Assembly: GCA_035390665.1 (NCBI GenBank) | Contig: DAOOUC010000002.1 | Span: 1-32,000 of the forward strand | Length of the DNA stretch: 32,000 nt | From: an archaeon | GTDB lineage: Archaea; Iainarchaeota; Iainarchaeia; Iainarchaeales; CSSED10-239 | Reading direction: 5' to 3' | Shown: positions 4,375 to 29,111 of the stretch, piece after piece | Position numbering within the stretch: the first letter of the stretch is position 1 | Layout: the number at the start of each line of letters is the position of its first letter | Translations under genes and position numbers: made by a program | The notes under the pieces: model-generated | Seen by the model: the letters and a program-made list of their open reading frames with translations, nothing else | Told to the model about the DNA's origin: nothing | Database searches by the model: none

Positions 4375-4380
4375 TGTTTG

Positions 4381-4857
4381 ATGAATGTGCCAATGATTGA
4401 CAAATGGGTTGATTTGATTTTTATTGCAGTTATTTTTGTAATAACCAATAGAACAATACAACATTTATTTGCGGATCCTAAAGAGTATTTTTTTGTTAAA
4501 AGAAGAAATAAAGAAATACAAGAAGAAATGAAAGGGCTAATGGCAAAGAACGACTACATAGCTGTTCAAGAAAAACAAAAAGAAGCATTTAATTTAATGT
4601 CAAGACAATTTAAGTCTTTATTTAAAACAATGATTCCATTATTATTATTGTCTTTACCATTCCTATATGTTATAAATAAGTTTTATGGGCCAATACAATA
4701 CATTGTAACAACATTTCCATGGAGTTTTGATTTGTATGGTTTTTGGACATTTTTCTTTATAACATTTATATTATCAATAATTACAAACAATGTTTATGAC
4801 AAAATATTTGAAAAAAAATATGCAGATTATGTTCCTGCAGATTATAAAAAAAAATAA
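4381..4857 (+). CDS. DUF106/EMC3-TMCO1-like membrane protein (archaeal YidC/Oxa1-like insertase candidate)
   Basis: N-terminal TM, a charged coiled segment (KRRNKEIQEEMKGLMAKNDYIAVQEKQKEAF..MSRQFKSLFKTMIP), then two further TMs. It occupies the slot of the COG1422/DUF106 gene that follows secY/adk in archaea. ATG at 4381 is preferred over the track TTG at 4378. Confidence 0.7.
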   Translation: MNVPMIDKWVDLIFIAVIFVITNRTIQHLFADPKEYFFVKRRNKEIQEEMKGLMAKNDYIAVQEKQKEAFNLMSRQFKSLFKTMIPLLLLSLPFLYVINKFYGPIQYIVTTFPWSFDLYGFWTFFFITFILSIITNNVYDKIFEKKYADYVPADYKKK

Positions 4858-4907
4858 TTCATTTATAAATAAATTTATATATAATATACATATACGGTGA
4901 AAAAAAT

Positions 4908-5249
4908 ATGCCTAATCCAAATCAAAAATTTAAGAAACATAAAAGTACAATAACTCCTGGTAAAAGAAATTCAAGAGTAATTGTAAAAAAGAAAACATCA
5001 AATCATAAGTGTGCAGTATGTAAAAGTACATTACATGGTATGCCTCATGGAAAAAGAACATTTGAGGTTAAAAAATTAAGTAAAACAGAAAGAAGACCAG
5101 AGAATTTATTGTCAAGTGTTTTATGTCCAAAATGTAGACAAATTGCATATCAAGAAGCAGTAATGTTAAAGAATAATATTAAGCAAGAAAAAGATTTAGA
5201 TTTAAGATATTTAAAATATATAAAAATGATAATGAAAAAAATTGAGTGA
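4908..5249 (+). CDS. rpl34e: 50S ribosomal protein L34e
   Basis: TPGKRNSRVIVKKKTSNHKCAVCKSTLHGMPHGK...CPKC zinc-ribbon-like pattern typical of L34e. GGTGA SD 7 nt upstream. Confidence 0.85.
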   Translation: MPNPNQKFKKHKSTITPGKRNSRVIVKKKTSNHKCAVCKSTLHGMPHGKRTFEVKKLSKTERRPENLLSSVLCPKCRQIAYQEAVMLKNNIKQEKDLDLRYLKYIKMIMKKIE

Positions 5250-5255
5250 TTTTTT

Positions 5256-5414
5256 ATGGGTTTATTAAAAGTTGGAAAAAAATGCACAATAATGCAAGGA
5301 AGAAATTTTGGTAAAAAAATTATAATAGACAATTTAGATTCTAAATTTGTTTATTATAAAAATAAAGACAAAGTTGAAAAGATAGGAATACAACATGTAT
5401 TTCCTTTAGAATAA
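5256..5414 (+). CDS. rpl14e: 50S ribosomal protein L14e (short, 52 aa); absent from the supplied ORF track
   Basis: My own translation gives MGLLKVGKKCTIMQGRNFGKKIIIDNLDSKFVYYKNKDKVEKIGIQHVFPLE*. The KOW-like VGKKCTIMQGRNFGKK..IID...FV pattern and the H-V-FP-L ending fit L14e. A GAGTGA SD-like motif lies upstream. It holds the expected L34e-(cmk)-L14e position. Confidence 0.75.
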   Translation: MGLLKVGKKCTIMQGRNFGKKIIIDNLDSKFVYYKNKDKVEKIGIQHVFPLE

Positions 5415-5433
5415 TTAAAAATGTGAAATATTT

Positions 5434-6048
5434 ATGGCAAAAAAACAAGATAAAAAATCACAGGAAAATACTCCAAAGCAAAATAAAGGAAAGGCTTCTG
5501 CAGGTAAAGTTTTAAAAGTTGAAAAATCAACTCCACAAACAGATAAATTAAAGATGTCTAAAGCTAAACCAAAGCCAAGTCATTTTAATGCTGCAAAAGA
5601 AGGTGCAGACTTTAAACAAATAGTAAGAATATCAAATAGAGATGTTCCAGGTTATATGACTATTGCAGATGGTTTGACTCTGGTTTATGGAATAGGAAAA
5701 AGATCAAGTAAAATTATAGAAGAAATATTTTTTGAGAAATCAGGAAAAGTAATTACAAAAGTAGGTCATTTATCTGATGAAGATATATTAAAGATCGAAG
5801 ACATAATAGTTAATTTAGACAAATATGTGCCTGCTTGGTTATTAAATAGACCTAAAGAAAGAGACGGGGGCCAAGCACAATATATCATGGCTGATTTAAA
5901 GCTAGTTGAAAGAAAAGAACTTCAAAGACTTGGAAAAATAAAAAGTTATAGAGGTTTAAGATTACAATGGGGTCTAAGAGTAAGAGGCCAAAAAACAAAA
6001 TCAACTGGAAGAAGACATGGTACTATTGGTGTTAACAAAAAGAAATAA
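5434..6048 (+). CDS. rps13: 30S ribosomal protein S13 (uS13) with a ~57-aa Lys-rich N-terminal extension
   Basis: The core from FKQIVRISNRDVPG...GIGKRSS...YRGLRLQWGLRVRGQKTKSTGRR is S13. TGTGA SD-like motif before the 5434 ATG. Confidence 0.9.
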   Translation: MAKKQDKKSQENTPKQNKGKASAGKVLKVEKSTPQTDKLKMSKAKPKPSHFNAAKEGADFKQIVRISNRDVPGYMTIADGLTLVYGIGKRSSKIIEEIFFEKSGKVITKVGHLSDEDILKIEDIIVNLDKYVPAWLLNRPKERDGGQAQYIMADLKLVERKELQRLGKIKSYRGLRLQWGLRVRGQKTKSTGRRHGTIGVNKKK

Positions 6049-6073
6049 GGCATGAAAAAAACGGTGAATAAAA

Positions 6074-6622
6074 ATGGGTGAACCTAGAAAATTAAGTAGA
6101 AGGTATGATGTACCAAGAAAATTGCACGATAAACAAAAAATGATTATCGATAATAAACTAACAAAAGAATATGGTTTAAAAACTAAAAAAGAAATTTGGA
6201 AAGCAGAATCTGTTGTTAGAAATTATAGAAAAGTTGCAAGAAGTCTTTTAGCAGGAAATGTTGATAATTATGAGAAAAGACATGCAGAACTTTTAGGAAG
6301 ATTACAGAAGATGGGTATCTTTACAAAAGATCACACAATAGATGATGTTTTAAAATTACAAGCATCTGATATTTTAGAAAGAAGATTACAAACACAAGCA
6401 TTTAGAAGAGGATTAGCATTAACACCAAATCAAGCAAGACAATTAATTGTTCATGGGCATGTTATTGTAAACGGAGTTAAGAGAACAGCACCAGGTTCAA
6501 TCGTAATGGCAGGAGATTCAATTGCTTATAAAAATACAAAAATAAAAGCAGTAATTGACAAATCACTTGAACAAAAAGGTAAACCAGCATTAAAAGAAAC
6601 AAAAAAGGAGAGTGAACAATAA
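6074..6622 (+). CDS. rps4: 30S ribosomal protein S4 (uS4)
   Basis: S4 domain RRLQTQAFRRGLALTPNQARQLIVHGHVIVNG. GGTGA SD. Synteny S13-S4-S11. Confidence 0.92.
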   Translation: MGEPRKLSRRYDVPRKLHDKQKMIIDNKLTKEYGLKTKKEIWKAESVVRNYRKVARSLLAGNVDNYEKRHAELLGRLQKMGIFTKDHTIDDVLKLQASDILERRLQTQAFRRGLALTPNQARQLIVHGHVIVNGVKRTAPGSIVMAGDSIAYKNTKIKAVIDKSLEQKGKPALKETKKESEQ

Positions 6623-7768: not shown

Positions 7769-7776
7769 TTTGATTT

Positions 7777-7858
7777 GCTGGGGTTCCCGAGCGGTCAAAG
7801 GGGCTGGACTTAAGATCCAGTGCTTAGTGCTTCACAGGTTCGAATCCTGTCCTCAGCA
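7777..7858 (+). tRNA. tRNA-Leu (anticodon UAA), type II with a long variable arm; no encoded CCA
   Basis: Hand-folded cloverleaf. Acceptor GCTGGGG/CCTCAGC (one G-U). D arm CCC-GAGCGGTCAAA-GGG. Anticodon stem CTGGA/TCCAG with loop CTTAAGA. 13-nt variable region. T arm ACAGG-TTCGAAT-CCTGT. Discriminator A. It starts 8 nt after the rpoD stop. Confidence 0.85.
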
Positions 7859-7992
7859 GAGCTGGTTTCGCTCATGTTAAAAAAATCTAAAGATTTTTTG
7901 GCATCCTAAAAACCAACAGGTTTTTATGAGCTCGCACGCAATGTTTGCTAGATCCCAAAGAAAAATAAGAATTGATATTTAAAAATTAAAAA

Positions 7993-8361
7993 ATGATGAA
8001 AATTATGAAAGCATTAGATAAAAAGAATTTACAAACTCAGAAATTAATATCTGAATTATATAGATTATCAAAAGATAAGAAAAAAGAAGTTTATGCAGTA
8101 GTTGCTAAATCTCTAATGGCGCCAACTAGAAAAATAAATGGTGTTAATTTCTTTAAATTACAAAAATCAAGTCACGTTGTTGATGGCGACATAATTGTAA
8201 TTCCAGGAAAATTACTTGCGGTTGGAACATTAGAAAAGAAAATTACAATATATGCAAACGGTTTTTCTGAAAGCGCAAAAGCAAAATTTAAAAATATAAA
8301 ATTATTATCTGATTTGATAAAGGATAATGTAGACTATAAAAAAATTAAATTAATTAAATAA
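7993..8361 (+). CDS. rpl18e: 50S ribosomal protein L18e
   Basis: ..VYAVVAKSLMAPTRKINGVNFFKL...DGDIIVIPGKLLAVGTLEKKITIYANGFSESAKAK matches the L18e pattern. It precedes L13-S9. Start ambiguous among ATGs at 7993, 7996 and 8005. Confidence 0.85.
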   Translation: MMKIMKALDKKNLQTQKLISELYRLSKDKKKEVYAVVAKSLMAPTRKINGVNFFKLQKSSHVVDGDIIVIPGKLLAVGTLEKKITIYANGFSESAKAKFKNIKLLSDLIKDNVDYKKIKLIK

Positions 8362-9425: not shown

Positions 9426-10289
9426 ATGGATAAGAAAGCAGTAAAAGAAACTCAAGATAAACCACAAAATTCTGGAAGAACATTAGTAAATGTTGATTTA
9501 TATTTAAAAAACGGAATACATATTGGAACTAAATATAAAAACGGGCCAATGAGAAAATTTGTATTTAAGTCAAGAAATGATAAAATCAATGTCATGGATG
9601 TTCAAGGAATCGATAAAAGAATAAAGATGTCTGTTGATTTTATTTCAAAATATGAACCACAAGATGTTGTATTTATTTCAAGAAAGAAATATGCACTTCC
9701 AGGGGTTAAGATTTTAGAACAAGCATTTGGTTATAAGTCTAAGTTAAATAGATTTATTCCAGGAACTTTTACAAATCCTGAATCAGAACACTTTATTGAA
9801 CCTAAATTAGTTTTTATTGCAGATCCTAATGTTGATAGACAAGCAATTATTGAAAGCACAAAAGCAAATATTCCAGTAATTGCTCTTTGTACAACTTCAA
9901 GTAATACAAGGAATGTTGATTTTATTATTCCTTATAACAATAAAGGAAGAAAATCAGTTGCTTTGTATTTTTGGATATTAATTAGAGAGCTTGAATTAAG
10001 AAACGGAGTTATTAAATCAGATAAAGACTTTGCATACACAATTGATGACTTAGTATATAATTCAGAAAATGGAGAAAAAGAAGTAGATGAAGAAAATGTT
10101 GTTTCAAGAAAAAGAGTTAGAAAAGTAAGTTCTAAAACACCAACAAGAAGACCAACAACAGCAAGAAAACCAACAGACGCTCCAAGAAGACCATACACAA
10201 GAAGAACACCAATTACAACACCAGCAGCAACAACACCTGTTGCAACAGAAACAGCAGCAGAAACTCCAAAAGTTGAAGAAAAAGTATAA
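9426..10289 (+). CDS. rps2: 30S ribosomal protein S2 (uS2) with a ~60-aa Pro/Thr/Arg-rich C-terminal tail
   Basis: LYLKNGIHIGTKYKNGPMRKFVFKSRNDKINVMDV...PVIALCTTSSNTRNVDFIIPYNNKGRKSVAL is the uS2 core. Confidence 0.9.
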   Translation: MDKKAVKETQDKPQNSGRTLVNVDLYLKNGIHIGTKYKNGPMRKFVFKSRNDKINVMDVQGIDKRIKMSVDFISKYEPQDVVFISRKKYALPGVKILEQAFGYKSKLNRFIPGTFTNPESEHFIEPKLVFIADPNVDRQAIIESTKANIPVIALCTTSSNTRNVDFIIPYNNKGRKSVALYFWILIRELELRNGVIKSDKDFAYTIDDLVYNSENGEKEVDEENVVSRKRVRKVSSKTPTRRPTTARKPTDAPRRPYTRRTPITTPAATTPVATETAAETPKVEEKV

Positions 10290-10359: not shown

Positions 10360-11085
10360 ATGCAAAATAATAAAGTATTAAATTTATTGTTAGAGTTTGG
10401 ATTAACAGAATATGAAGCAAAAACTTTGACAACTTTATTTAATTTTGTAGAAGCTGATGCTCCACACATTAGTAGGAATGCAGAAATTCCAAAAACAAGA
10501 ATTTACGATGTTCTAGAAAAATTAAAAGAAAGAGGATTGGTTCTTGAAGTTTATGGTAGGCCAAAAAGATATAAGGTAATAGAACCAAACGAGATTTTTA
10601 AATATTTAATGGATGAAAAACAGAAACAATTATCTGGTCTTGATAAACAAGTAAAAGATATTTTAAGTAAAGACAATTGGATGGCACAAGTTAATTCTGT
10701 TCAAGAAAAAATATTACAAGTTAAAAGTATTAAAGATTATAACAAAATATTATCTCAAGAATTTGAAGGTGCTGAAAAATCAATTACTGGTTTTACACGT
10801 TTTGACGAAAGAATCGATGCATTTAGATCAATTTATGAAAAACCAGAAGTTTCAGTAAATTTAATATCTAAACCATTGTCAAAAGACTACGACTTACCAA
10901 GCAATTTTAAGATTCAAGAAAAAGATCACTCAATGGATGCTTTTATTGTTGATAAGAATAAAGTTATTATGTCATTAAATGATTTGTCAACACCAAAAGA
11001 AACATATCATTTAACTATTTTAAAAAACAATCCAAGTTTAACAAAAGCAATAACTACTCATTTTGATGATTATTGGAAAAAGTAG
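10360..11085 (+). CDS. TrmB-family transcriptional regulator (N-terminal winged HTH)
   Basis: LLEFGLTEYEAKTLTTLFNFVEADAPHISRNAEIPKTRIYDVLEKLKERGLV is a typical TrmB HTH. AAGGTGA SD. Confidence 0.8.
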   Translation: MQNNKVLNLLLEFGLTEYEAKTLTTLFNFVEADAPHISRNAEIPKTRIYDVLEKLKERGLVLEVYGRPKRYKVIEPNEIFKYLMDEKQKQLSGLDKQVKDILSKDNWMAQVNSVQEKILQVKSIKDYNKILSQEFEGAEKSITGFTRFDERIDAFRSIYEKPEVSVNLISKPLSKDYDLPSNFKIQEKDHSMDAFIVDKNKVIMSLNDLSTPKETYHLTILKNNPSLTKAITTHFDDYWKK

Positions 11086-11100
11086 TTTTTCTCTTTTTTT
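11086..11100 (+). terminator. Oligo-T tract (TTTTTCTCTTTTTTT), a likely archaeal terminator after the TrmB-like gene
   Basis: T5 and T7 runs directly after the stop codon. Archaeal RNAP terminates at oligo-T. Confidence 0.5.
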
Positions 11101-11115
11101 ATTTAAATAAAAAGC

Positions 11116-11125
11116 TTTAAATATA
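11116..11125 (+). promoter_or_regulatory. TATA box TTTAAATATA with an A-rich BRE-like upstream flank, for the small pilin gene
   Basis: AAAAAGC-TTTAAATATA ends 22 nt before the ATG and no SD is present, so the mRNA is probably leaderless. The same TTTAAATATA decamer recurs at 14336 and 25496. Confidence 0.45.
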
Positions 11126-11146
11126 TTTGTAGCTTTAAGACTATTT

Positions 11147-11464
11147 ATGTTTAAATTTAAGAGATTAAATTCTAAAGGGCAAGGCACTCTTGAGATGTTA
11201 ATAATACTTGGAATATTAATTCTTGGAGCAGTTATTTTTTCAATGATCTATATTGGGAATATAAGAAAAGAAAATAAAGTAAATAAATCAGAAGACACCT
11301 CTGTTTCAGACTTTAATTCTTCACTATACACTTATGAAGTTCCTGCACAAACTGGTTTTAATTTTAATTTTGAAGATGCCCTAATTTCTATTAGTTTATT
11401 ATCCTTAATTGGAATGTTTAGGCCAATTCCTATTTTTAAGATAATCAACCAGAAAGTAATATAA
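11147..11464 (+). CDS. Small type IV pilin-like protein (class III signal peptide, QxSxE/DUF361-like)
   Basis: MFKFKRLNSKG|QGTLEMLIILGILILGAVIF has a basic N-terminus, a K-G cleavage context, Gln at +1, Glu at +5 and a hydrophobic helix. Confidence 0.65.
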   Translation: MFKFKRLNSKGQGTLEMLIILGILILGAVIFSMIYIGNIRKENKVNKSEDTSVSDFNSSLYTYEVPAQTGFNFNFEDALISISLLSLIGMFRPIPIFKIINQKVI

Positions 11465-11487
11465 ATATTCTTATCTTTAAATTAATA

Positions 11488-14325
11488 ATGAAAAGAAATA
11501 TTTATTTATTACTATTAATTAGTTTAATTCTATTTGTAAGTGTTGTTTATGCAAAAGAAAGCACTGTAGAAGAATCACAAATAGAAGAAGGCAATTTAGA
11601 CTTTTACAAATATCCAGATGTATTTTATCCACCAGAAGAAGAACTTGCAAAGCAAGGCATGACTTTAGAAAGTTACAAGCAAGCATTAAAGCGAAGCGCG
11701 CCAAAGAATCGAAACTCAAGTGTCAACAACATTTGGGGCACATGTCCAACAACTGGAACAGTAAAGATTCCAGTGTTGCTTGTAAAATTTTCTGACAAAA
11801 ACATCACAACTTACAATTTATCAGATATTAATAATTATTTTAATTCACAAGACATCAATTCTAATTTTATAAGTGTGAGCAAATACTATAATATGCAATC
11901 ATATGGAACTCTTAATTTTGTCTTCGATGTTTACGATTGGACAACCATGCCACAAACTTTTGCTTACTATTCAGCAAATAATGTTACCGAATATCAATTA
12001 CCAATTGATGCGTATACTACTTTCAATCCATCTGTAGATTTTGCACAATATGATAACGATAATGATGGCAGAATTGATGGTGCAGTTATAATTTATCCAG
12101 ATATTGGAAAAACTACCTCGTTAGGAATTTGGCCACAAACACGAATCTTAAAAGCAGATTTTGATTATTTATTTGATAACAAATATTTAGGAAATACTTC
12201 GTTAGTTTCTGAAAGAAAAAGTGACACTTCCAATTATTTTGCAACAGTAATAGCAATACACGAGCTTGCACACATTCTTGGACTTCCGGATTTATATTCT
12301 TTAAATCCGCAAGGAACTTTTGATGAAGGACCAATTTATCAAATGTCTATGATGATATTTAAAGATTATACGTCAACAACAAATCATTGTTTAAATAAAC
12401 CAATTAATCTTGATGTTTGGTCAAGATATTTTTTAGGTTGGATAACTCCAAAAGAGTTGAATACTTTTGATGATAAAAATCAAACTTTAAGAAGTGTAAA
12501 TTATTATCCTGATGCTGTAATATTAAAAAATAATAATCTTTTAGATAGAGAATATTTTATAATTGAAAATAGACAGAGAGACTCAAATGTATCTAATTTA
12601 GATAAATGCCTGTTTTCTAATTCTTCGCCGTACAATATCGGAGGTTTTGCAATTTATCATGTTGATGAGAATAAAATTGAAGCCCATTATCCAAATATAA
12701 ATGGCAATGTTAATTGGGATCCAGATGGTAATTATTATGATGATACAACCAGGCCAGGAATAACTTATGAGAAAAATTATGTTACTTCTTTAAATTCATT
12801 TACAATACAAGTTGCAGATTTATATTATTATCAAAACACCCTTCCCGGAATTAGGGAGTATTTTGATGAAAACCATCATTTAAGACCAGGATATACAACA
12901 TTTGATATGACAACAAAATCATATTCAGGAAATCCAAATCCATTAATTAGATTCCAAGCATGGTCTGGGCCAACAGATAATATTAAAACGGCAACAATAT
13001 TGATTGCAGAAGATACAATTACTCCAATAATCGATTACAATAGTGGAACTTATCCAGAAGGAACGGAGTTTGTTATTTCTACGACAACTCCAGATTCAAT
13101 AATTTATTATACAACTGATGGATCAACTCCAAATTTTAATTCTCCCCAAATAGAAAGTGGCTCTGCAATAACATTGCCTGTTGGAACAATAACATTAAAA
13201 GCAATGGCGAAAGGGGAAGATTATTATAAAAGTGAAATTATTACCAGAACATACACAATAACCGGGACAGTTGCTAATCCACAAGCAACACCAGCAAGTG
13301 GTTTTGTAGATTATGGTACCCAAGTTAGTTTAAGCACAACAACTGATGGAGCAACAATAAGATATATTCTAGATGGAAGCGAACCAACAGAGAGTAGTTC
13401 AATTTATAGTTCTCCAATAACCATAACACAAGACACAATAATAAAAGCAAGAGCATTTAAAGAAAATTGGCAACCAAGCGATATAGTTGAATTTAACTAT
13501 ACAGTAAATGTAGTTGTTGCACCTGTTGCTTCACAAGAATCAGGAGTATTAGATTTTAGAACTCCAGTTACTTTAAGTACTACAACAACTGGAGCAACAA
13601 TAAGATATACAATAGATGGAACAGAACCAACAGCAACTTCACCAATATATACTTATCCAATATATGTTGTAAGGCCAATTACATTAAAAGCAAAAACATT
13701 TAAGACAGGACAAGAACCAAGTGATACATCAAGTTATGATTATCAAGTAAAATTATCAAATCCTAAATTTAATATTGATTCAGGAAATTATCCATTTACT
13801 ACTAAAATAATTTTAACATCAGATGTTCCAGGAGTACAAATATATTATACAACAGATGGATCTGATCCTAATGATGGACAATTATATACTGCTCCATTAA
13901 GATTATTAGAAGATACACAACTAAGAGTAATATCAAAAAGAATAGATTATGTTGATAGTGATATTATACAAAAAGATTATAGCATATCTCATCAAGAACA
14001 ACAAGTTCCAACACTATTAATAAATCCAAGAACCCCGAGAGCTTATGAAAATTTTGATATAACATATATAACAGAAAGACATTGGGAAGACGATATTAAT
14101 TTTTCAATAAATAATATGAATGGTTGTACTTTTAATTTAAGACATCCATTGCTATATAATGATGGCCATTATAGTTATTATATTTTTGAAAACAATAGAT
14201 GTATAAGAAGACAACAAAGAAGATTAACTTTTGTTGCAAGTAATCAGAACGATTTAGAAAGAGTAGATACAGAAATAACAATACTAGATTCTGGAATAAC
14301 AGCAATTGCTGTTGGACGAGAATGA
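11488..14325 (+). CDS. Secreted M6/immune-inhibitor-A-like zinc metalloprotease with four C-terminal CHB_HEX_C-like repeats
   Basis: Sec signal MKRNIYLLLLISLILFVSVVYA. The IPVLLVKFSD beta-strand motif and HELAHILGLPDLY (HExxHxxGxPDxY, nt 12259-12297) are typical of M6 peptidases. Four ~80-aa repeats carry the YTTDGS.P / IRYT.DG.EPT signature. Confidence 0.75.
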   Translation: MKRNIYLLLLISLILFVSVVYAKESTVEESQIEEGNLDFYKYPDVFYPPEEELAKQGMTLESYKQALKRSAPKNRNSSVNNIWGTCPTTGTVKIPVLLVKFSDKNITTYNLSDINNYFNSQDINSNFISVSKYYNMQSYGTLNFVFDVYDWTTMPQTFAYYSANNVTEYQLPIDAYTTFNPSVDFAQYDNDNDGRIDGAVIIYPDIGKTTSLGIWPQTRILKADFDYLFDNKYLGNTSLVSERKSDTSNYFATVIAIHELAHILGLPDLYSLNPQGTFDEGPIYQMSMMIFKDYTSTTNHCLNKPINLDVWSRYFLGWITPKELNTFDDKNQTLRSVNYYPDAVILKNNNLLDREYFIIENRQRDSNVSNLDKCLFSNSSPYNIGGFAIYHVDENKIEAHYPNINGNVNWDPDGNYYDDTTRPGITYEKNYVTSLNSFTIQVADLYYYQNTLPGIREYFDENHHLRPGYTTFDMTTKSYSGNPNPLIRFQAWSGPTDNIKTATILIAEDTITPIIDYNSGTYPEGTEFVISTTTPDSIIYYTTDGSTPNFNSPQIESGSAITLPVGTITLKAMAKGEDYYKSEIITRTYTITGTVANPQATPASGFVDYGTQVSLSTTTDGATIRYILDGSEPTESSSIYSSPITITQDTIIKARAFKENWQPSDIVEFNYTVNVVVAPVASQESGVLDFRTPVTLSTTTTGATIRYTIDGTEPTATSPIYTYPIYVVRPITLKAKTFKTGQEPSDTSSYDYQVKLSNPKFNIDSGNYPFTTKIILTSDVPGVQIYYTTDGSDPNDGQLYTAPLRLLEDTQLRVISKRIDYVDSDIIQKDYSISHQEQQVPTLLINPRTPRAYENFDITYITERHWEDDINFSINNMNGCTFNLRHPLLYNDGHYSYYIFENNRCIRRQQRRLTFVASNQNDLERVDTEITILDSGITAIAVGRE
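13018..13986 (+). repeat. Four tandem ~240-nt coding repeats (chitobiase/hexosaminidase C-terminal-like domains) inside the protease gene
   Basis: Repeat units start near 13018, 13261, 13507 and 13750. Units 2 and 3 share DNA identity, including a 19-nt run ggagcaacaataagatata. Confidence 0.7.
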
Positions 14326-14335
14326 TACGAAAAGA

Positions 14336-14345
14336 TTTAAATATA
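14336..14345 (+). promoter_or_regulatory. TATA box TTTAAATATA with a GAAAAGA BRE-like flank, for the pilin-signal adhesin gene
   Basis: Same decamer as at 11116. It lies 46 nt before the ATG, with a TGTGA SD-like motif in between. Confidence 0.45.
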
Positions 14346-14390
14346 CTAATAATGTATATTTAGATATATATTTAGAAATGTGATTAATAA

Positions 14391-16139
14391 ATGTTTAAAT
14401 CAAAAAAAGGACAAATTGCTTTAGAAGTATTAGTAATATTTGGTGTTTTAGTTATCGGTTCAATAATTTTTGGACTATTTTATATGAATAATGTTAAAGA
14501 CATTTTAGTTGAAGGACCAGGAACTAAACAAGATAAGAATGGCGGCGGAGATGTTTATGATGATTTAGAAGGTTCTTTAATATACAATGAAGAACAACAG
14601 ATTGGATCTAGTTCTCACGGTATAACCGGAGGTAGCGGAGGTTCTAGTGGGACAGGAGGAACAGACGACCCAGAAGACCCACCAGTTCCATATTGTGGAG
14701 ATGGGGAGTGTAATGGAACAGAAACCACAATTAGTTGTCCACAAGATTGTACAGCAGGATATTTCTTTGGAAGTTTGGAATTAAGTATATTACCAGAAGA
14801 TATAGCTTATACTACAGATAAAATTACAATTAATGTAACATTTGAAAGTGACGCGCAATCTTCTCAAATATCACAAATTAATATAAAAAAATACAATTTA
14901 GATGATTATGCTTATTATGATACAATAGATTGTGGATTAATGGATTATGATAATAATTATACTTATTTAAATGTAGGAGAATTATTGCCATTACAACCAG
15001 GATATTTAACAGGTTCTTTTGATTTTATTTGTAATCAATCAGGATACTATGAATTTACTTTTTCTATAAATACAGGAGAAGACACTATAACTAATTATAT
15101 AAATAAAGAAATCGTAGAACCAGAGCAACCATTAGAATTTATTTCAGTCTGGGATACAGATTATACTGGTTCTGGACTTACAAAAAATAATGAAATCTTA
15201 CTTCCTTTAATTAATAGTGGAAATTATGATTTTTATGTAGATTGGGGAGATGGGGAAATAACGCACATTACAAATAATGATAGCAAAACAGTGCTTTATG
15301 CATTTTCTGGTGTTGACTACGATGGTGTAGCAAAACACGAATATATTCGCCCAGGAGAATATATTGTTACAATAACAGGGACAATAGAAGGATTTACTTT
15401 TGTAAGACCAGATTTTATGGGTGGCGTTCCAGTTGATGCAATAAAATTAAAAGAAATTTCACAATGGGGGCCTTTAAGATTAGGAAGTCAAGGACAATAT
15501 TTTAAAAGTGCACAAAATTTAGTAATAACTGCAACAGATTTATTAGATACCAGTGATGTAACTGATATGTCTTACATGTTTTCAGAATGTACATTAACTG
15601 ATGTTCCAAGGATAAGCGAATGGGACACCTCAAACGTAACAGATATGAGCCGTATGTTTTATTATTCACCTAATTTCAATCAGCCACTATCATTTGATAC
15701 TTCAAATGTAAGAGATATGAGTCACATGTTTTATTATGCGACAAAGTTTAATTCTGTAATTGATTTTGATACTTCAAATGTTGTGAATATGCAATCTATG
15801 TTTGAAGGCGCTAGAAAATTTAATCAGCCACTATCATTTAATACTTCAAATGTAACAGATATGAGTTATATGTTTTATGCTGCTGAAGATTTTAATTCAT
15901 CTATAAATTTTAATACATCAAGTGTTACCAATATGGCCAACATGTTTAATTTTGCACGGAATTTTAATCAACCATTAAACTTTGATACTTCAAATGTAAC
16001 CAATATGGACGGGATGTTTTATTTTGCAGAGAATTTTGATCAAAACATAAGTAATTGGAATGTAAATTATGTACTCTCATGGGTCTATATGTTTGAGGGC
16101 TGCCCAATACGAAATGAGTATAAACCACAGTTTAGATAG
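14391..16139 (+). CDS. Pilin-signal (class III) protein fused to a Gly/Ser linker, a Cys-rich module and eight DUF285/BspA-like repeats; putative pilus-displayed adhesin
   Basis: MFKSKKG|QIALEVLVIFGVLVIGSIIF has Gln +1 and Glu +5. A GGSGGSSGTGGT linker and YCGDGECNGTETTISCPQDC follow. FISVWDTDYTG...YDFYVDWGDGE precedes 24-aa repeats of the form DTSNVTDMSxMFYxAxxFNQPLSF. Confidence 0.75.
   Translation: MFKSKKGQIALEVLVIFGVLVIGSIIFGLFYMNNVKDILVEGPGTKQDKNGGGDVYDDLEGSLIYNEEQQIGSSSHGITGGSGGSSGTGGTDDPEDPPVPYCGDGECNGTETTISCPQDCTAGYFFGSLELSILPEDIAYTTDKITINVTFESDAQSSQISQINIKKYNLDDYAYYDTIDCGLMDYDNNYTYLNVGELLPLQPGYLTGSFDFICNQSGYYEFTFSINTGEDTITNYINKEIVEPEQPLEFISVWDTDYTGSGLTKNNEILLPLINSGNYDFYVDWGDGEITHITNNDSKTVLYAFSGVDYDGVAKHEYIRPGEYIVTITGTIEGFTFVRPDFMGGVPVDAIKLKEISQWGPLRLGSQGQYFKSAQNLVITATDLLDTSDVTDMSYMFSECTLTDVPRISEWDTSNVTDMSRMFYYSPNFNQPLSFDTSNVRDMSHMFYYATKFNSVIDFDTSNVVNMQSMFEGARKFNQPLSFNTSNVTDMSYMFYAAEDFNSSINFNTSSVTNMANMFNFARNFNQPLNFDTSNVTNMDGMFYFAENFDQNISNWNVNYVLSWVYMFEGCPIRNEYKPQFR
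15546..16110 (+). repeat. Eight tandem 72-nt (24-codon) coding repeats, with 34-nt near-identical DNA copies 144 nt apart
   Basis: caatcagccactatcatttgatacttcaaatgta (15677-15710) versus taatcagccactatcatttaatacttcaaatgta (15821-15854). tttgatacttcaaatgt recurs at about 15693, 15765 and 15981. Confidence 0.8.
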
Positions 16140-16140
16140 T

Positions 16141-16584
16141 TTATATTTTTTCTCTTTTTATTTTTCCTAATTTTAGTATTTGCTTAGATAATGGATCTCC
16201 GTATTCTTTAAAGTAATAGACTTCTTTAAACCCAAGTTCCACTAAAAACCTAGAACAAATAGTACAAGGGGAATAACTACAATATAGTGTTGCATCTTTA
16301 AGGTCAATACCCTTCTTTAAAGCATTAAGAATAGCCCTTTGCTCAGCACAAAGCCCAGTACATAGCTCATTTCTTTGCCCTGGCCTCATTTTAAAATACT
16401 CTTTAGCACAACCAATAACAGAACAAGGCGGAATAGTTGAGCTGTTACCATTATACCCAGAAGATAGGATTTTTCCATTTTTAACAATAACTGCCCCAAT
16501 TTGTTTTCTTAAACAAAGTGATAGTTTTTCTTGTTTTTTAAGTTCTTTAAGTATTTCTGTTGATACCATGAAAATATCAAACAT
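16141..16584 (-). CDS. Cytidine/deoxycytidylate deaminase family protein (dCMP deaminase-like)
   Basis: Zinc motifs CAEQRAILNA and PCTICSRFL, with the ComEB-like upstream segment GCAKEY...GQRNELC. Convergent with the adhesin gene, stop codons 1 nt apart. Confidence 0.7.
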   Translation of the reverse strand: MFDIFMVSTEILKELKKQEKLSLCLRKQIGAVIVKNGKILSSGYNGNSSTIPPCSVIGCAKEYFKMRPGQRNELCTGLCAEQRAILNALKKGIDLKDATLYCSYSPCTICSRFLVELGFKEVYYFKEYGDPLSKQILKLGKIKREKI

Positions 16585-16650: not shown

Positions 16651-16685
16651 AAAGCCGATGAAAAAACAAATATTTTGGAGGTTTT
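16651..16685 (+). promoter_or_regulatory. Kink-turn hairpin in the L7Ae 5' UTR that embeds the SD (candidate L7Ae autoregulatory site)
   Basis: C-stem AAAGCC(16651-56)/GGUUUU(16680-85). 3-nt bulge GAU. Tandem sheared G60.A79 and A61.G78. A62.G77. Then four A-U pairs and loop CAAAUA. GGAGG (16677-81) lies on the non-bulged strand and the ATG is at 16690. Confidence 0.6.
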
Positions 16686-16689
16686 AAAT

Positions 16690-17169
16690 ATGGCAGAATT
16701 TGTTAAGTTTTCAGTACCTGAGGATCTTAAGAATCTTCAAGCTGACGTTATTTCAAAAGTTTCTAAATCAGGAAAGATTAAAGTAGGAATTAATGAAGTA
16801 ACAAAAACAATAGAGAGAAATACAGCTAAATTAGTTGTTATTGCTCAAGATATATCACCTGCAGAAATTGTAATGCACGTTCCAATAATCTGTAAGGAAA
16901 AAAGCATACCTTTTACATACGTCTCAACAAGAGAAGAACTTGGAAAGATTTCAGGTATCGGCGCAAAAGCAAGTGCAATAGCAATTGTTGATGAAGGAGT
17001 ATTAAAGAAGGAATTTAGTGCTTTATTATCAAAGATAGAAGAAATTAGTGGAGTTACCGCAAAATCAAAACCAGAAGCAAAAGAGGAAAAGCCAAAAGTA
17101 GCTGATAAAAAACCAGCAGCAGAGAAAAAACCAGTAGCAAAAAAAGAAGTTGCTGAAAAGAAAGAATAA
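16690..17169 (+). CDS. rpl7ae: 50S ribosomal protein L7Ae (k-turn binding) with a Lys/Pro/Ala/Glu-rich C-terminal tail
   Basis: GINEVTKTIERNTAKLVVIAQDISPAEIVMHVPIICKEKSIPFTYVSTREELG is the L7Ae core. ATG at 16690 with a GGAGG SD is preferred over the track TTG at 16675. Confidence 0.9.
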   Translation: MAEFVKFSVPEDLKNLQADVISKVSKSGKIKVGINEVTKTIERNTAKLVVIAQDISPAEIVMHVPIICKEKSIPFTYVSTREELGKISGIGAKASAIAIVDEGVLKKEFSALLSKIEEISGVTAKSKPEAKEEKPKVADKKPAAEKKPVAKKEVAEKKE

Positions 17170-17614: not shown

Positions 17615-17620
17615 AAGCAC

Positions 17621-17638
17621 TTTCTTTTTTATTTTTTT
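17621..17638 (+). terminator. Oligo-T tract TTTCTTTTTTATTTTTTT after L24e
   Basis: T-runs 7 nt after the stop codon. A TTTTAAAAG promoter-like motif follows, before aIF5B. Confidence 0.5.
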
Positions 17639-17656
17639 AGTTAAAGTTTTAAAAGA

Positions 17657-25495: not shown

Positions 25496-25505
25496 TTTAA
25501 ATATA
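25496..25505 (+). promoter_or_regulatory. TATA box TTTAAATATA upstream of the large surface-protein gene (divergent region shared with traB)
   Basis: Same decamer as at 11116 and 14336. It lies 46 nt before the ATG. Confidence 0.4.
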
Positions 25506-25550
25506 TAATATATTATATATTACTATAAACCATTTAAATGTGTTAAAAAA

Positions 25551-28500
25551 ATGATAAAGAAAATAATAATATTCTTAATGTTAATTATATTTAGTGCAAA
25601 TGTTTTTGCATATACAACAAATACAATTAATATTACTTCAAGTTATGCAAATAGTTCGGGAAATATTAATTTTACTGGAACAGCAACAGGAGAACTAAAT
25701 GAGCAATTACAATTAAATGTATCTTCTGGAGGAGACGGGGTAGGAATAGATTTTAATGTTACAATTGTTAGTGGTAATTTTTCAGGAAGTTTTAATATTG
25801 CTATTGATGGAGAATCAAGTTCTGGCACAGTTCCTACAATTAAAACCAATTCTTTTGATACAATTAGATTAAAAGATAAACAAAATTCAGATAAAAACGA
25901 CACAATCATAGTTGATTCAGTAAAACCAACAAATTCAGCAGCCCTAACTATTTCTGTGCTTGGCGACAATTATTTAAATTATTATTCTGGTAGCATAAAT
26001 GTAAGTTATGTTCCCGGAACATTATCTGATTCTGGATCTTCGGGAATAAGTAATCACATTATTACTGTTGTTCCTGTTACAGAAATTAATAATTATTTAT
26101 CATCCACAAGAAAATTTATAAATGCAAGTACAGACAACAATAAAACAATCAATTCTTTGTCTCCAGTAATTCCTGATGGAAATTATTTTGTAGTAATTGA
26201 TGCTAATGATTTGGCTGGAAATTATTCTTTATCTGATTCTGTTTTAGCAACAAAAAAAAATGTTTATTTTGATAATACAAAACCAGAAATTTCAGCTGTA
26301 TTAATTGGAACTACAGAAAAAACAATCGACACAAATAAAATTTATATCCCAAATACTAGTTTTATTTTAACTATTTTATTAGAGGATTCTTCAGGAATAG
26401 AACAAACAAGTTCATTAACAGTAATACGCCCCGATGCTTTACCAAGATATAGTAATTATGATGCTACAAATGGTTTTGTAATTAGTTCTACAGACATTGG
26501 AAGCGGGTGGGAAGATGGAGACATTTTTAGAGTATCAATTGATGCTAACGATAATGTCAATAACAGATATACTTATGATTTTAATATAATAATTGATACC
26601 ACAAAACCAACAACACCAAATAAAAACACAACAACAATAGAAGATCTTGACAAGAATGTAACAATTACTTGGGCAAAAGATGCATCAACAGATGTAGGTT
26701 CTGAATTAAAGGAATATAGGGTTTATAAAAGCACAACTACATTTACAACAATAACAAATCAAACTCTTGTGTGTACAACAGGAACAACAACTTACACATG
26801 TAAAGACACAGATGAAAAAAATTTAGATGAAGTTTATTATTATGGACTTGTTGGCGTAGATAATGCAGGAAATATTAGTGACTCCAATACTCAGTCTATT
26901 TGGACAGGGCCAGAATGTGATATAGAAATAAATGATGGTAATGAATATACAAATCTATCAAGTGTTGATATAAATATTAGTTATTCAGATGATGTAAATT
27001 TAGTTGCATTTAGTTGTAATGGCACTTCTTTTTCTAGCTATCAAGAGTTAGATGAAGATGATGATGAAGCTTCTAAAACATTTACAATAACTTCTGGAAA
27101 CGGTTGTAATTCAGATGAAGACGAAAAAACAATTTATGCAAGAATAAAAACAACTGATGAAGACGATCCTAGAACAACAATTTGTTCTGCAGAGATATAT
27201 TACGATACCACTGCACCAAATATTCCTACAAATATTAAAGCAATAACTCAAGCAAATGGAAGCATAAAATTATCATGGGATGATTCTGAAGATGAAAATA
27301 CGGATTCTTATGTTACTTATAGAGTTTATTATTCCTTAACTAATAATGTCACAAGCACATCGTCTTATTTTGAAGTAGAAGATAATACTTATACCCACAA
27401 CCCAAATCAAGACACAAATGTTTATTATAAATTAAGTGCAATAGATGAGGCAGGAAATCAATCTTCTTTATCTGCAACAATAACAGGTGTTGCAAAAAAG
27501 ATTGGCGCAGATTTAACAATTTCAATAACCCCTTCAAATACAGATGCAAATATTTTATATGTGGGTAGTGGAATAAAAACAATAAAGTATATTAGTGATG
27601 AATCTTTAGTAGGAACTCCACAAGTAAGTGTAAAGCAAGGAACAGATTCTTTTGTTACAATTATAACAACATATAATAATTCTAATAAAACAGGTCAAGG
27701 CGAATTTAATTTCACAAAGTCAGGAAATGGAACAATAAAAATTATTGCAACAAATAATAATAATGAGATTTCAACATCAGAATTAAGTTTCACTATAGAT
27801 ATTAATGCCCCTACATTTGATTATAACTATTCTGATTCAAACGGCACATTTTTATTTAATTTAAAAGACTATTCTTCTGATATACACAGAGCACAATATT
27901 TATTAGACGACTCGGAAGAAATCTGTTTGAGAAATAAAACAGATAGTAATTTCAATTGTATATTTGATTCCACAGGTACAGCCGATGGGAACCATTTAGT
28001 TTCAATAATAGTATATGATCGTGCATTAAATATTACAAAAAAAGAAACAAGTATTGTAATTGACAACGTTGATGAAGACCAAATACTTTCTACAACATTA
28101 AAACTAGAATTAGATGTTAATATAGAAAAAACAAAAGACAATTTAGAATTATTTGAAGCCCTTAATTTATTAAAAGAACTAGATAGTTCTATAAAAACAA
28201 AATTTGAATTGGCAAAAGCAGACAAGTCAGATGGGGATCAATTATTTGGGCAATCAAAATTTTTAGAAGCAAAAGAAAAGTATTTGTTAGTGAAAGATTC
28301 ACTTATTGAAATAGATAACAATCTTCCAAAAATTGAAATAATAAACACCACAGAAACAGATGCAATTTATGATGAAAATTCAACAGTTCCTCAAGGATTA
28401 ATAATGGATTCAAATGCAATAACAGATACTATAAACTTGTATAAAACAAAAGATATAAAAATTATTAGAAATTTTGATGTAATTAAAATAGAGAATCACA

Positions 28501-29111
28501 AATTCTTTTCTGTTACTCTTAAAATTACTAATTCAGGTACAACAAGCAAGCAAATAACAATTATGGAAGAAATTCCAAAATCTTTTAGTACAAGTATAAA
28601 AAATCTTTCATTTACAGAGCAAATAGATATTTTATTAGCAGATCCAATAATAAAATATAGTGTAGAAATACCTGCAGGTCAAACAAAAGAAATTACATAT
28701 AGATTAATGACACCAATAACTGATGTGGATTCTATAACAAAATATAACACCATAAATAAAAGCTTCGTTGCTCCAGTAATATTAAGCGGGGAAATTCAAA
28801 AAGAAAAATTTAATATTAAAAAACCAGTTAATACAAATTTGTTTATTTATCTAATCTCTATTGTTGTTTTATTTATAATAATATTATTAATACTTAATGC
28901 AATTACAACCTTTAAAAATAAACAAGTAAAAATTGAAATAAAAAAAGATTCAAAAACAGAAATGTCTGATTATTTAGGAAATATAAAACAGGAAAATGTA
29001 AAAAATGAAGAATTAGAAGAAACAGCAAAGATTGTGGATGAAAAAAAACAATCTGCAGATAAATTCCAAGAGAATTATGATTATATTCTTTCAGCAATAA
29101 AAAAAAGATAA
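25551..29111 (+). CDS. Large (1186 aa) type I membrane-anchored surface protein, S-layer/adhesin-like, with Ig/Fn3-like modules
   Basis: Signal peptide MIKKIIIFLMLIIFSANVFA. Many N-x-S/T sequons. Recurring domain-boundary motifs D.(T/V)KP(T/E) and DTTAP. Fn3-like segments ending in VD.AGN.S. C-terminal TM LFIYLISIVVLFIIILLILNAI (about nt 28836-28913) plus a charged ~85-aa tail. Confidence 0.7.
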   Translation: MIKKIIIFLMLIIFSANVFAYTTNTINITSSYANSSGNINFTGTATGELNEQLQLNVSSGGDGVGIDFNVTIVSGNFSGSFNIAIDGESSSGTVPTIKTNSFDTIRLKDKQNSDKNDTIIVDSVKPTNSAALTISVLGDNYLNYYSGSINVSYVPGTLSDSGSSGISNHIITVVPVTEINNYLSSTRKFINASTDNNKTINSLSPVIPDGNYFVVIDANDLAGNYSLSDSVLATKKNVYFDNTKPEISAVLIGTTEKTIDTNKIYIPNTSFILTILLEDSSGIEQTSSLTVIRPDALPRYSNYDATNGFVISSTDIGSGWEDGDIFRVSIDANDNVNNRYTYDFNIIIDTTKPTTPNKNTTTIEDLDKNVTITWAKDASTDVGSELKEYRVYKSTTTFTTITNQTLVCTTGTTTYTCKDTDEKNLDEVYYYGLVGVDNAGNISDSNTQSIWTGPECDIEINDGNEYTNLSSVDINISYSDDVNLVAFSCNGTSFSSYQELDEDDDEASKTFTITSGNGCNSDEDEKTIYARIKTTDEDDPRTTICSAEIYYDTTAPNIPTNIKAITQANGSIKLSWDDSEDENTDSYVTYRVYYSLTNNVTSTSSYFEVEDNTYTHNPNQDTNVYYKLSAIDEAGNQSSLSATITGVAKKIGADLTISITPSNTDANILYVGSGIKTIKYISDESLVGTPQVSVKQGTDSFVTIITTYNNSNKTGQGEFNFTKSGNGTIKIIATNNNNEISTSELSFTIDINAPTFDYNYSDSNGTFLFNLKDYSSDIHRAQYLLDDSEEICLRNKTDSNFNCIFDSTGTADGNHLVSIIVYDRALNITKKETSIVIDNVDEDQILSTTLKLELDVNIEKTKDNLELFEALNLLKELDSSIKTKFELAKADKSDGDQLFGQSKFLEAKEKYLLVKDSLIEIDNNLPKIEIINTTETDAIYDENSTVPQGLIMDSNAITDTINLYKTKDIKIIRNFDVIKIENHKFFSVTLKITNSGTTSKQITIMEEIPKSFSTSIKNLSFTEQIDILLADPIIKYSVEIPAGQTKEITYRLMTPITDVDSITKYNTINKSFVAPVILSGEIQKEKFNIKKPVNTNLFIYLISIVVLFIIILLILNAITTFKNKQVKIEIKKDSKTEMSDYLGNIKQENVKNEELEETAKIVDEKKQSADKFQENYDYILSAIKKR

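Follow-up and report, generated by a model that had tools for sequence, protein, structure and literature searches.

We analysed a 32,000-nt stretch of archaeal DNA (hereafter the window) that carries, between two clusters of ribosomal and translation genes, a locus for predicted surface and secreted proteins. Our reading, which we hold to be fairly probable, is that positions 11147-16139 form a lineage-specific, recombination-diversified surface adhesin/protease locus of a tiny-genome archaeon of the phylum Iainarchaeota (kingdom Nanobdellati, DPANN). The accessory part of the region is this segment only, and it encodes a small protein with a class-III (pilin-type) signal, an M6 metalloprotease, and a second class-III-signal protein with DUF285 repeats, here called the adhesin. 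A TrmB-family gene bounds it on the left and a convergent deaminase gene on the right (Table 1). The first-pass annotation of this DNA had joined all five open reading frames (ORFs) into one 6.2-kb island that is not housekeeping. The five ORFs lie exactly where it had placed them, and its description of an island holds for the three secreted genes, the junction being empty in six related genomes, but not for the TrmB-family and deaminase genes.

Divergent domains in closely related genomes

Compared with the corresponding locus from another sample (L001), the window showed 99-100% nucleotide identity over 1.5-11.0 kb and 16.2-20.7 kb. Two divergent blocks lay between these stretches (Table 1), one over the catalytic domain of the protease (53-72% nucleotide identity) and the other over the head of the adhesin (40-71% in 200-nt bins). 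The DNA from 13400 to 14600, which covers the C-terminal region of the protease from its second CHB_HEX_C repeat, the spacer, and the signal and linker of the adhesin, was 92-97% identical. At the amino acid level, the catalytic domain shared 54% identity with that of L001 and 59-60% with proteases of other organisms, including the copy at the L3 site in L003, and the C-terminal 375 residues of the protease were 90% identical to L001.

The domains of the adhesin match different relatives best, and this is why we explain them by domain shuffling through recombination. The signal and linker were closest to L001 (92%), the Ig-like domain to L109 (70%, vs 32% in L001; the domain is absent in L110), and the WGDG domain to L110 (74%, vs 45% in L001), and the repeats were about 54% identical to each of L004, L110, and L009. 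In the backbone DNA, L001 stood far nearer to the window than did L109 and L110 (88-89% nucleotide identity), and these stood nearer than L004 (78%). Between L109 and L110, which represent sister species, the main difference lies in the head of the adhesin. Both lack the M6 catalytic domain and keep the adhesin, and their first island gene encodes a class-III protein of ~540 aa whose N-terminal 66 residues match the small protein (52%) and whose remainder matches the C-terminal repeat region of the window protease (34%).

Taken at the sequence level, these patterns indicate a probable recombinational exchange of domain cassettes between otherwise near-identical genomes. The window allele is real and stable, because contigs of four other assemblies from different samples (L105-L108) are 99.99-100% identical to the window DNA. 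Homologous recombination with localized variable regions has been reported for Ca. Forterrea of the same phylum (PMC5905446), and surface proteins of Nanoarchaeota are reported to show elevated non-synonymous variation (PMC6142677). It should be noted that the DUF285 gene of L001 (12871-14828) is split into four ORFs and that its SecY and RpoD genes are split too (1543-2874 and 5531-6268), which points to assembly frameshift errors and not to pseudogenes.

The same junction in related genomes

A scan of species-representative genomes with a TrmB-family alignment gave 21 loci, and all loci of the analysis were annotated by BLASTP with the window proteins; the relatives included Candidatus Iainarchaeum, Diapherotrites, and Ca. 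Forterrea multitransposorum. The backbone order RpoN-S2-TrmB-X-L7Ae-S28e-L24e-aIF5B was kept in every comparable locus, and the content of X, the junction between TrmB and L7Ae, was polymorphic. It was empty in six genomes, where TrmB stands directly before L7Ae with 117-275 nt between them (L016, L017, L018, L021, L022, L023), and held variable cargo in others. Three loci contained the deaminase only (L011-L013), two a class-III-signal DUF285 protein plus the deaminase (L006 and L009), and two a class-III-signal DUF285 protein, then an M6 protease, plus the deaminase (L004 and L007, the former without the small protein). The arrangement of the window, with small protein, M6 protease, adhesin, and deaminase, was found in L001 and L105-L108. 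In the Forterrea group (L019, L051, L058) the cargo was an M6 protease with a class-III-signal CHB_HEX_C protein, and in L048 and L066 a 388-aa class-III-signal protein with an M6 protease. Other cargo comprised a 346-aa cytoplasmic protein (L014) and a 153-aa protein (L024).

In a neighbour-joining tree of concatenated L13, S9, S2, and TrmB, the subclade of the window had the DUF285 adhesin universally and the protease patchily, and its sister groups had only the deaminase. Within that subclade the small protein was confined to the species of the window; in L005, the contig end cuts through a class-III gene, the first of that locus, with 41% identity. The three secreted genes, whose joint presence and order had been put forward as a trait to be sought across relatives, thus kept both within the species only (L001, L105-L108).

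In L015, synteny was broken exactly at the TrmB/L7Ae junction, from 5702 onward. Past TrmB, this locus has a cation-pump-like membrane protein, a GTPase, and others in place of L7Ae, which look like housekeeping genes by inspection.

Pairing of M6 proteases with class-III-signal proteins

A metagenome scan with an alignment of the protease gave 79 loci, of which L026-L068 contain the protease's own family; collapsing at 95% identity left 47 M6 genes. An adjacent gene with a class-III motif was present at 22 of these 47. The motif occurred in 25 of 72 ORFs neighbouring an M6 gene and in 7 of 627 non-adjacent ORFs of the same loci (odds ratio 47, Fisher p 6e-21, with related loci treated as independent and shared ancestry uncorrected). 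The linkage of protease and pilin-signal genes that had been suggested for the window was therefore borne out, in the form of a recurrent pair. In all 33 adjacencies the two genes ran in one direction, and the gap between them had a median of 77 nt. The pairs occupied at least three genomic positions, namely the TrmB/L7Ae junction, a site upstream of the L3-L4-L23 cluster (L002, L003, L037, L046), and places elsewhere, and they spanned 32-70% M6 identity. The heads of the partner proteins varied and included DUF285, GLUG/M26_N, CHB_HEX_C with InlB B-repeat, RCC1 propeller, and Big_7 domains. The conserved unit is thus the pair, an M6 protease and a class-III-signal protein with interchangeable heads, and not a fixed module of three or five genes.

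A reading without any functional coupling holds that the TrmB/L7Ae junction is merely a permissive spot, at which M6 and class-III genes adjoin because both are abundant, fast-evolving surface genes. It accommodates the unrelated cargo of L014 and L024, the synteny break in L015, the absence of mobility genes, and the free order of the pair, the class-III gene standing upstream of the M6 gene 18 times and downstream 15 times. However, it does not account for the strong enrichment over other ORFs of the same loci, the constant co-direction and short gaps, or the recurrence of pairs at different chromosomal positions and across such a range of M6 identity. In addition, some relatives fuse the N-terminus of the small protein to the C-terminal repeat region of the protease. 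We therefore regard the absence of coupling as unlikely.

Two further arrangements were seen around such pairs. In L036 (59-8166 and beyond), the pair is duplicated in tandem, in the order class-III GLUG protein, M6, class-III protein, M6. In L002 (14518-16488) and L003 (12403-14400), a Sec-signal protein (656 aa in L002) stands directly past the pair, and in L002 it has a terminal pretoxin-HINT domain, which hints at a polymorphic-toxin-like companion of the pair.

Predicted proteins of the locus

Both class-III-signal proteins begin with a basic leader and the motif K-G/Q-x-x-L-E (the slash marks the predicted cleavage site), followed by a hydrophobic helix. The N-terminus is MFKFKRLNSKG/QGTLEMLIILGILILGAVIF in one and MFKSKKG/QIALEVLVIFGVLVIGSIIF in the other; the signal reads K-G/QGTLE in the small protein and K-K-G/QIALE in the adhesin, so that both have Q in position +1 and E in position +5. 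A module of the form K-[GA]/Q-x-[SA]-x-E-x-L-x-I-x-G...G...F...Y was shared at the N-terminus by 32 distinct proteins of the lineage, ranging from 88 to 1805 aa, and had further conserved residues at G+11, G+16, F+20, and Y+24. The assignment of a pilin signal to both proteins in the first-pass annotation agrees with this shared motif. Matches of NCBIfam models CPR_pilus_PamR (E 1e-3) and DUF499_antiphage were set aside as partial-domain hits far below cut-off.

The adhesin consists of the class-III signal and helix (aa 1-33), a disordered linker rich in G, S, and D (aa 34-100), a CGDGxC...CPxDC knot, an Ig-like beta-sandwich (aa 123-243), a WGDG domain (aa 251-385), and DUF285/PARCEL repeats of BspA type (aa 386-582). 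The adhesin-type repeats predicted earlier were confirmed by PF03382 (DUF285; 194.4 bits vs a cut-off of 25), by TIGR02167 (74.5 vs 30; PARCEL repeats), and by a tandem array of 72-nt units (Table 1). An identical protein is named BspA family leucine-rich repeat surface protein at NCBI. The lipoprotein-type Mycoplasma DUF285 family NF045896 reached 123.7 bits vs a cut-off of 500, and the N-terminus carries a class-III signal, not a lipobox. In the AlphaFold2 (AF2) model, residues 6-33 form a helix and residues 32-122 are disordered; the beta-sandwich (123-243) and the repeats (390-580) were modelled with confidence, the WGDG domain poorly. Foldseek of this model against the PDB returned generic Ig-like beta-sandwich matches alone (E about 1e-3). 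As modelled, the adhesin would be a tethered head and not a normal filament subunit.

By inspection, the protease begins with a Sec-type signal. It has a catalytic domain at about aa 35-510 and four CHB_HEX_C/Fn3_assoc beta-sandwich repeats at about aa 515-830 (CHB_HEX_C_1, 208 bits in 4 stretches). Its C-terminus (13980-14325) is a Cys-containing domain (...NGCTFN...ENNRC...) that matches no Pfam model. In a profile search the M6 domain passed TIGR03296 (123.6 bits vs a cut-off of 110.8); Pfam PF05547 gave 15.6 vs 22 in the window protease and is carried by many relatives. The zinc and catalytic motif HEXXHXXGXXD is present as HELAHILGLPD (aa 258-268), and H258, E259, H262, G265, and D268 were invariant in 22 sequences. 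A family profile of the protease matched InhA (4YU5) over positions 97-302 (E 1.1e-4). Searches of the PDB with the single protease or the single adhesin sequence found essentially nothing, InhA being reached by the family profile only. The protein is thus a predicted distant member of the M6 family, and its earlier designation as InhA-like stands.

The C-terminal Cys domain recurs, duplicated, at the end of the class-III CHB_HEX_C protein of L109 and L110 (about 1950-2569 in L109). Three contigs of 55% GC with bacterial-looking neighbours (L029, L032, L035; M6 gene at 7743-11036 in L035) also carry M6 proteases with CHB_HEX_C repeats, 47-48% identical to the 29%-GC archaeal protease, and some close homologues are labelled Bacteroidales or Cloacimonetes at NCBI. 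We take this as a sign that proteases of this type may have been transferred between the domains of life.

Promoters and transcription units

The first-pass annotation had pointed to one shared box before both pilin-signal genes. A 16-mer, AAAAG[C/A]TTTAAATATA, is indeed present upstream of each, and each copy forms a TATA box with an A-rich flank like a transcription factor B recognition element (BRE) (Table 1). However, the box is not specific to these genes. The window has 6 copies of TTTAAATATA, where 1.5 would be expected (6 were reached by 2 of 100 shuffles); one copy lies at 25496, upstream of an S-layer-like gene that starts at 25551, and a further copy is inside an ORF (30409). Since the S-layer-like gene has the same box, we regard it as a strong BRE/TATA consensus of the lineage. 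A scan for sigma-70 promoters and intrinsic terminators, which is not applicable to archaea, showed no enrichment.

The first TATA box begins 31 nt upstream of the ATG of the small gene, so its transcript is probably leaderless. With only 23 nt between the small gene and the M6 gene, co-transcription of both is probable. The start of the adhesin gene is preceded by GTGAT, which resembles a Shine-Dalgarno sequence. Two transcription units are likely, both with a strong BRE/TATA box, one for the small protein and the protease and one for the adhesin. An oligo-T tract at 11086-11104, between TrmB and the small gene, is terminator-like.

The S-layer-like gene (25496-29111 with its box) encodes a protein of 1186 aa in which a Sec signal is followed by a long body of Ig/Fn3-like type and, at the C-terminus, by a transmembrane anchor and a charged tail. 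Its TTTAAATATA box, which the adhesin gene also has, is at -55.

Proposed mechanism

We propose that an EppA-type prepilin peptidase encoded elsewhere would cut the class-III proteins after K-G. Substrates of EppA in Methanococcus typically have Q in position +1. The N-terminal helix may then anchor these proteins in the membrane, or insert them into or onto a type IV filament, and the long flexible linker and Cys-knot stalk would present the Ig-like/DUF285 head outward for ligand binding. The protease would be exported via Sec and co-expressed, and its CHB_HEX_C repeats plausibly keep it at glycosylated surfaces. There it might degrade proteins at the bound surface, either the envelope of a host or neighbour or environmental protein, and the products could feed an auxotrophic cell. 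The conserved 5' signal and linker modules together with the flanking backbone would serve as homology arms, so that recombination swaps heads and catalytic domains, and such swaps could diversify specificity between strains. Judged from sequence, host attachment by the locus is plausible.

Several observations weigh against the locus as a surface adhesin/protease system of this kind. Both window proteins fall just below the cut-off of the class-III model PF04021 (22.5 bits for the small protein and 16.3 for the adhesin vs 23.7), and relatives likewise score just below it (e.g., 23.5 for the 989-aa protein of L019). The disordered linker of 60-90 residues argues against class-III proteins as ordinary filament subunits, and the protease shows no evident membrane anchor and may simply be released. 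Genes for a prepilin peptidase, an assembly ATPase, and a platform protein were not found in the window or within 8-10 kb on either side of related loci, so processing and display are deduced from the signal by itself. In the adjacency statistic, loci of common ancestry were counted as independent. Furthermore, some Iainarchaeota have been considered free-living (PMC5905446).

A more specific version of the mechanism can be sketched, which we offer as speculation and consider rather improbable. The locus would encode a two-component contact tool, in which a modular pilin-signal adhesin on or near a type IV filament binds a partner and the co-expressed M6 protease opens or digests the partner's proteinaceous envelope. 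It would act as an expression site for head and catalytic cassettes swapped by homologous recombination, with the class-III signal and linker as recombination handles, and strains would thereby track different hosts or prey.

TrmB and deaminase as boundaries of the locus

The TrmB-family protein has a winged helix-turn-helix domain (PF01978, 68 bits vs a cut-off of 25.6). Sugar-binding equivalogs of the family failed (NF040851, 49 vs 600; NF047390, 56 vs 650) and matched only the N-terminal ~100 residues. A family profile aligned positions 1-241 to residues 1-260 of TrmBL2 (5BPD; E 1.8e-13), and the score for the equivalog NF041141 was 40.8 vs 530. TrmB directly follows S2 in all 26 comparable Iainarchaeota loci, with or without cargo, six of them having nothing before L7Ae. 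It is thus a lineage-wide backbone gene, apparently of TrmBL2-like type, and not part of the accessory cargo. It was proposed before as a local regulator of the island, a role that does not fit a gene fixed after S2 whether or not cargo follows and ending in an oligo-T tract of its own.

The deaminase (PF00383, 70 bits) is 99% identical in L001. It had been counted as part of the island, which was not sustained. Because it is the sole gene between TrmB and L7Ae in L011-L013, we conclude that it is an older resident that predates the secreted genes and is not part of the surface module. A match to an anti-phage dCTP deaminase model of NCBIfam was set aside as partial-domain (62.8 bits vs 400).

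These results bear on the suggestion that all five genes make up one host-attachment module of an episymbiont, with TrmB as its local regulator. The four plus-strand genes are indeed collinear with short spacers, as the first-pass annotation had noted (61, 23, and 65 nt between successive genes). The organism belongs to a DPANN lineage, the slots that adk, cmk, and ndk usually occupy lack them in the window, and the related Forterrea is predicted to be symbiotic (PMC5905446). However, TrmB stays after S2 in every relative, including the six with an empty site, and resembles a global regulator; the deaminase occurs alone at the site; the trio is not conserved past the species; and between TrmB and the small gene lies a T tract that resembles a terminator. 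We thus hold a five-gene module to be improbable.

The small protein and the question of a pilus

The small protein has the motif SDFNSxLxxYExP..GFNFN and a conserved C-terminal hydrophobic tail in the alignment of its family, which comprised 17 representatives among 1.84e9 proteins, in short and long forms. Its first 66 residues share homology with the N-terminal part of the 541-aa class-III CHB_HEX_C protein of L109. The 105-aa ORF might be what is left of a longer gene, now dead; as a full explanation this was rejected, since short homologues that are intact and have the conserved tail precede M6 genes elsewhere (L045, P0214, P0215).

The locus might instead be a genuine type IV pilus operon, whose products build one filament with the 105-aa protein as major pilin and the 582-aa protein as adhesin at the tip. 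The class-III signals of both, with their Q (+1) and E (+5), and the pilin-like size of the small protein speak for this. However, assembly genes were not found nearby. No ORF with the GxGD motif of A24 prepilin peptidases was present in any fetched locus, no ORF with a Walker A motif of PilB/FlaI type (T2SSE) was present in the fetched loci, domain annotation of the window ORFs of at least 80 aa gave no assembly ATPase or platform protein, and the gene lists of related loci held no Pfam match for T2SSE, T2SSF, or A24. In addition, the conserved C-terminal hydrophobic segment is unusual for a filament subunit, the small protein is absent in L004, L006, L009, L109, and L110, which keep the adhesin, and its family is as rare as stated above. 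A pilus operon is accordingly a highly doubtful reading.

Composition and borders of the locus

S2 ends at 10289, and the ATG of L7Ae is at 16690, in an ORF that opens at a TTG at 16675. The flanks are archaeal ribosomal and translation clusters, S13...S2-TrmBL2 on one side and L7Ae-S28e-L24e-aIF5B on the other, and their earlier description as conserved information-processing clusters agrees with the annotation.

An integrated mobile element or provirus remnant with surface genes would be consistent with the patchy distribution and with the insertion relative to other genomes, and is nevertheless barely credible. No integrase or transposase was found at the island. The repeat search detected no att-like flanking direct repeats, its T-rich matches being terminator-like tracts. 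Rfam and tRNA scans had tRNA-Leu at 7776-7859 as their sole match, leaving the island borders without a tRNA. The GC content of the island (0.25-0.33) resembles that of the flanks. IMG/VR scans with alignments of the protease and the adhesin returned 0 relatives, and a viral origin was rejected on that ground.

Comparison with known systems

The first-pass annotation knew of no described system with this composition. This was overstated, as class-III-signal proteins with functional heads are established (PMC8179133; bioRxiv 10.64898/2026.04.22.720090). Modular type IV pilins, such as PilB with a vWA module and PilC with a lectin module in Streptococcus sanguinis (PMC8179133), likewise graft a ligand-binding module onto a class-III signal and helix, serve in adhesion, and show many architectures on one N-terminal chassis. 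The proteins described here differ in being archaeal with an EppA-type K-G/Q signal, in having a linker and Cys knot directly after the helix with no recognisable globular pilin domain, and in being encoded outside a pilus operon and paired with a secreted M6 protease. The sugar-binding proteins of the Sulfolobales bindosome (bioRxiv 10.64898/2026.04.22.720090) are also functional extracellular proteins with a pilin-type signal that are encoded away from the assembly machinery. In contrast to them, the heads here are of adhesin type (DUF285, GLUG, CHB_HEX_C, RCC1) and not solute-binding proteins, and the partner gene encodes a protease and not an ABC transporter. Adhesin-like class-III-signal proteins of archaeal type IV filament (TFF) loci are comparable (bioRxiv 10.64898/2026.04.22.720090; PMC6393860).

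The protease resembles Bacillus InhA (4YU5) in its HEXXHXXGXXD zinc site, its TIGR03296 match, its secretion, and its C-terminal beta-sandwich accessory domains. Vibrio PrtV is an M6 peptidase with similar features to InhA. The window protease is very distant from InhA (profile E 1e-4, PF05547 below cut-off), belongs to an archaeal host, has four CHB_HEX_C repeats and a further C-terminal domain, and is syntenic with class-III-signal genes. The adhesin shares with BspA-like/DUF285 (PARCEL) proteins of Mycoplasma, Listeria, and oral bacteria the repeats of 24-26 residues (PF03382, TIGR02167) and a presumed role in adhesion, but is predicted to be anchored by a class-III signal and helix instead of as a lipoprotein or by sortase, and has Ig-like and WGDG domains before the repeats. 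The 241-aa regulator next to the locus can be aligned from end to end with TrmBL2 of Thermococcales (5BPD), with the winged helix-turn-helix, a coiled coil, and a short C-terminal domain, although it is far below the equivalog cut-off given above.

Antigenic variation of pilin is exemplified by pilE/pilS of Neisseria. As in surface-protein islands and antigenic variation, variation here is concentrated in surface-exposed domains, 5' parts are conserved, and recombination is the source. In contrast to pilE/pilS, we found no silent cassette store, and whole domains, the catalytic one included, appear to be exchanged between strains and species and not within one genome.

The locus is therefore an unusual variant of known surface-protein systems and not a new kind of machine. 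What appears to be new is the recurrent pairing of M6 and class-III genes in Iainarchaeota, together with the exchange of domain cassettes at a fixed site beside ribosomal operons. Full-text literature searches turned up no paper that links DPANN to DUF285 or to immune inhibitor A. Little is known of the ways in which DPANN archaea recognise other cells and exploit them, and no member of the Iainarchaeota is in culture; the locus gives concrete candidates, namely an active-looking secreted metalloprotease conserved in pairing with pilin-signal adhesins. Two strains with 99-100% identical backbone DNA and different protease and adhesin domains provide a natural experiment by which specificity is testable. 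The modular-pilin idea would be extended from bacteria to a DPANN lineage, and domain-level shuffling at a fixed chromosomal site would include the catalytic domain of an enzyme.

Other features of the window

The coordinates of the locus and its elements are collected in Table 1.

Table 1 Features of the locus and its boundaries in the window
Feature	Position	Strand	Remarks
TrmB-family gene	10360-11085	+	241 aa; left boundary, backbone gene
BRE-like A-rich flank and TATA box (AAAAGCTTTAAATATA)	11110-11125	+	serves small-protein/M6 unit; repeat D17
Small class-III-signal gene	11147-11464	+	105 aa
M6 metalloprotease gene	11488-14325	+	945 aa
Divergent block 1	11600-13200	+	M6 catalytic domain, compared with L001
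Second BRE/TATA copy (AAAAGATTTAAATATA)	14330-14345	+	55 nt before adhesin ATG
Class-III-signal DUF285 adhesin-like gene	14391-16139	+	582 aa
Divergent block 2	14600-16140	+	adhesin head, compared with L001
Tandem 72-nt (24-aa) DUF285 repeat array	15624-16043	+	repeats D1/D2
dCMP/cytidine-type deaminase gene	16141-16584	-	147 aa; right boundary; convergent, tail-to-tail with adhesin gene

The slots usual for adk and cmk (SecY to S13, 4375-5433) and for ndk (L24e to aIF5B, 17615-17656) are without these genes, in accordance with what had been noted earlier for the clusters of this window. The tRNA-Leu(TAA) gene lies between RpoD and L18e, and the bin 7801-8000, which holds its 3' end and the following spacer, was 74% identical to L001 with surroundings at 99-100%, making it a second, small hypervariable patch. 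S2 and L7Ae have low-complexity C-terminal tails (at 10100-10289 and 17040-17169, respectively) rich in P, T, A, K, and E, with lengths that differ widely between relatives (229-354 aa for S2 and 150-245 aa for L7Ae).

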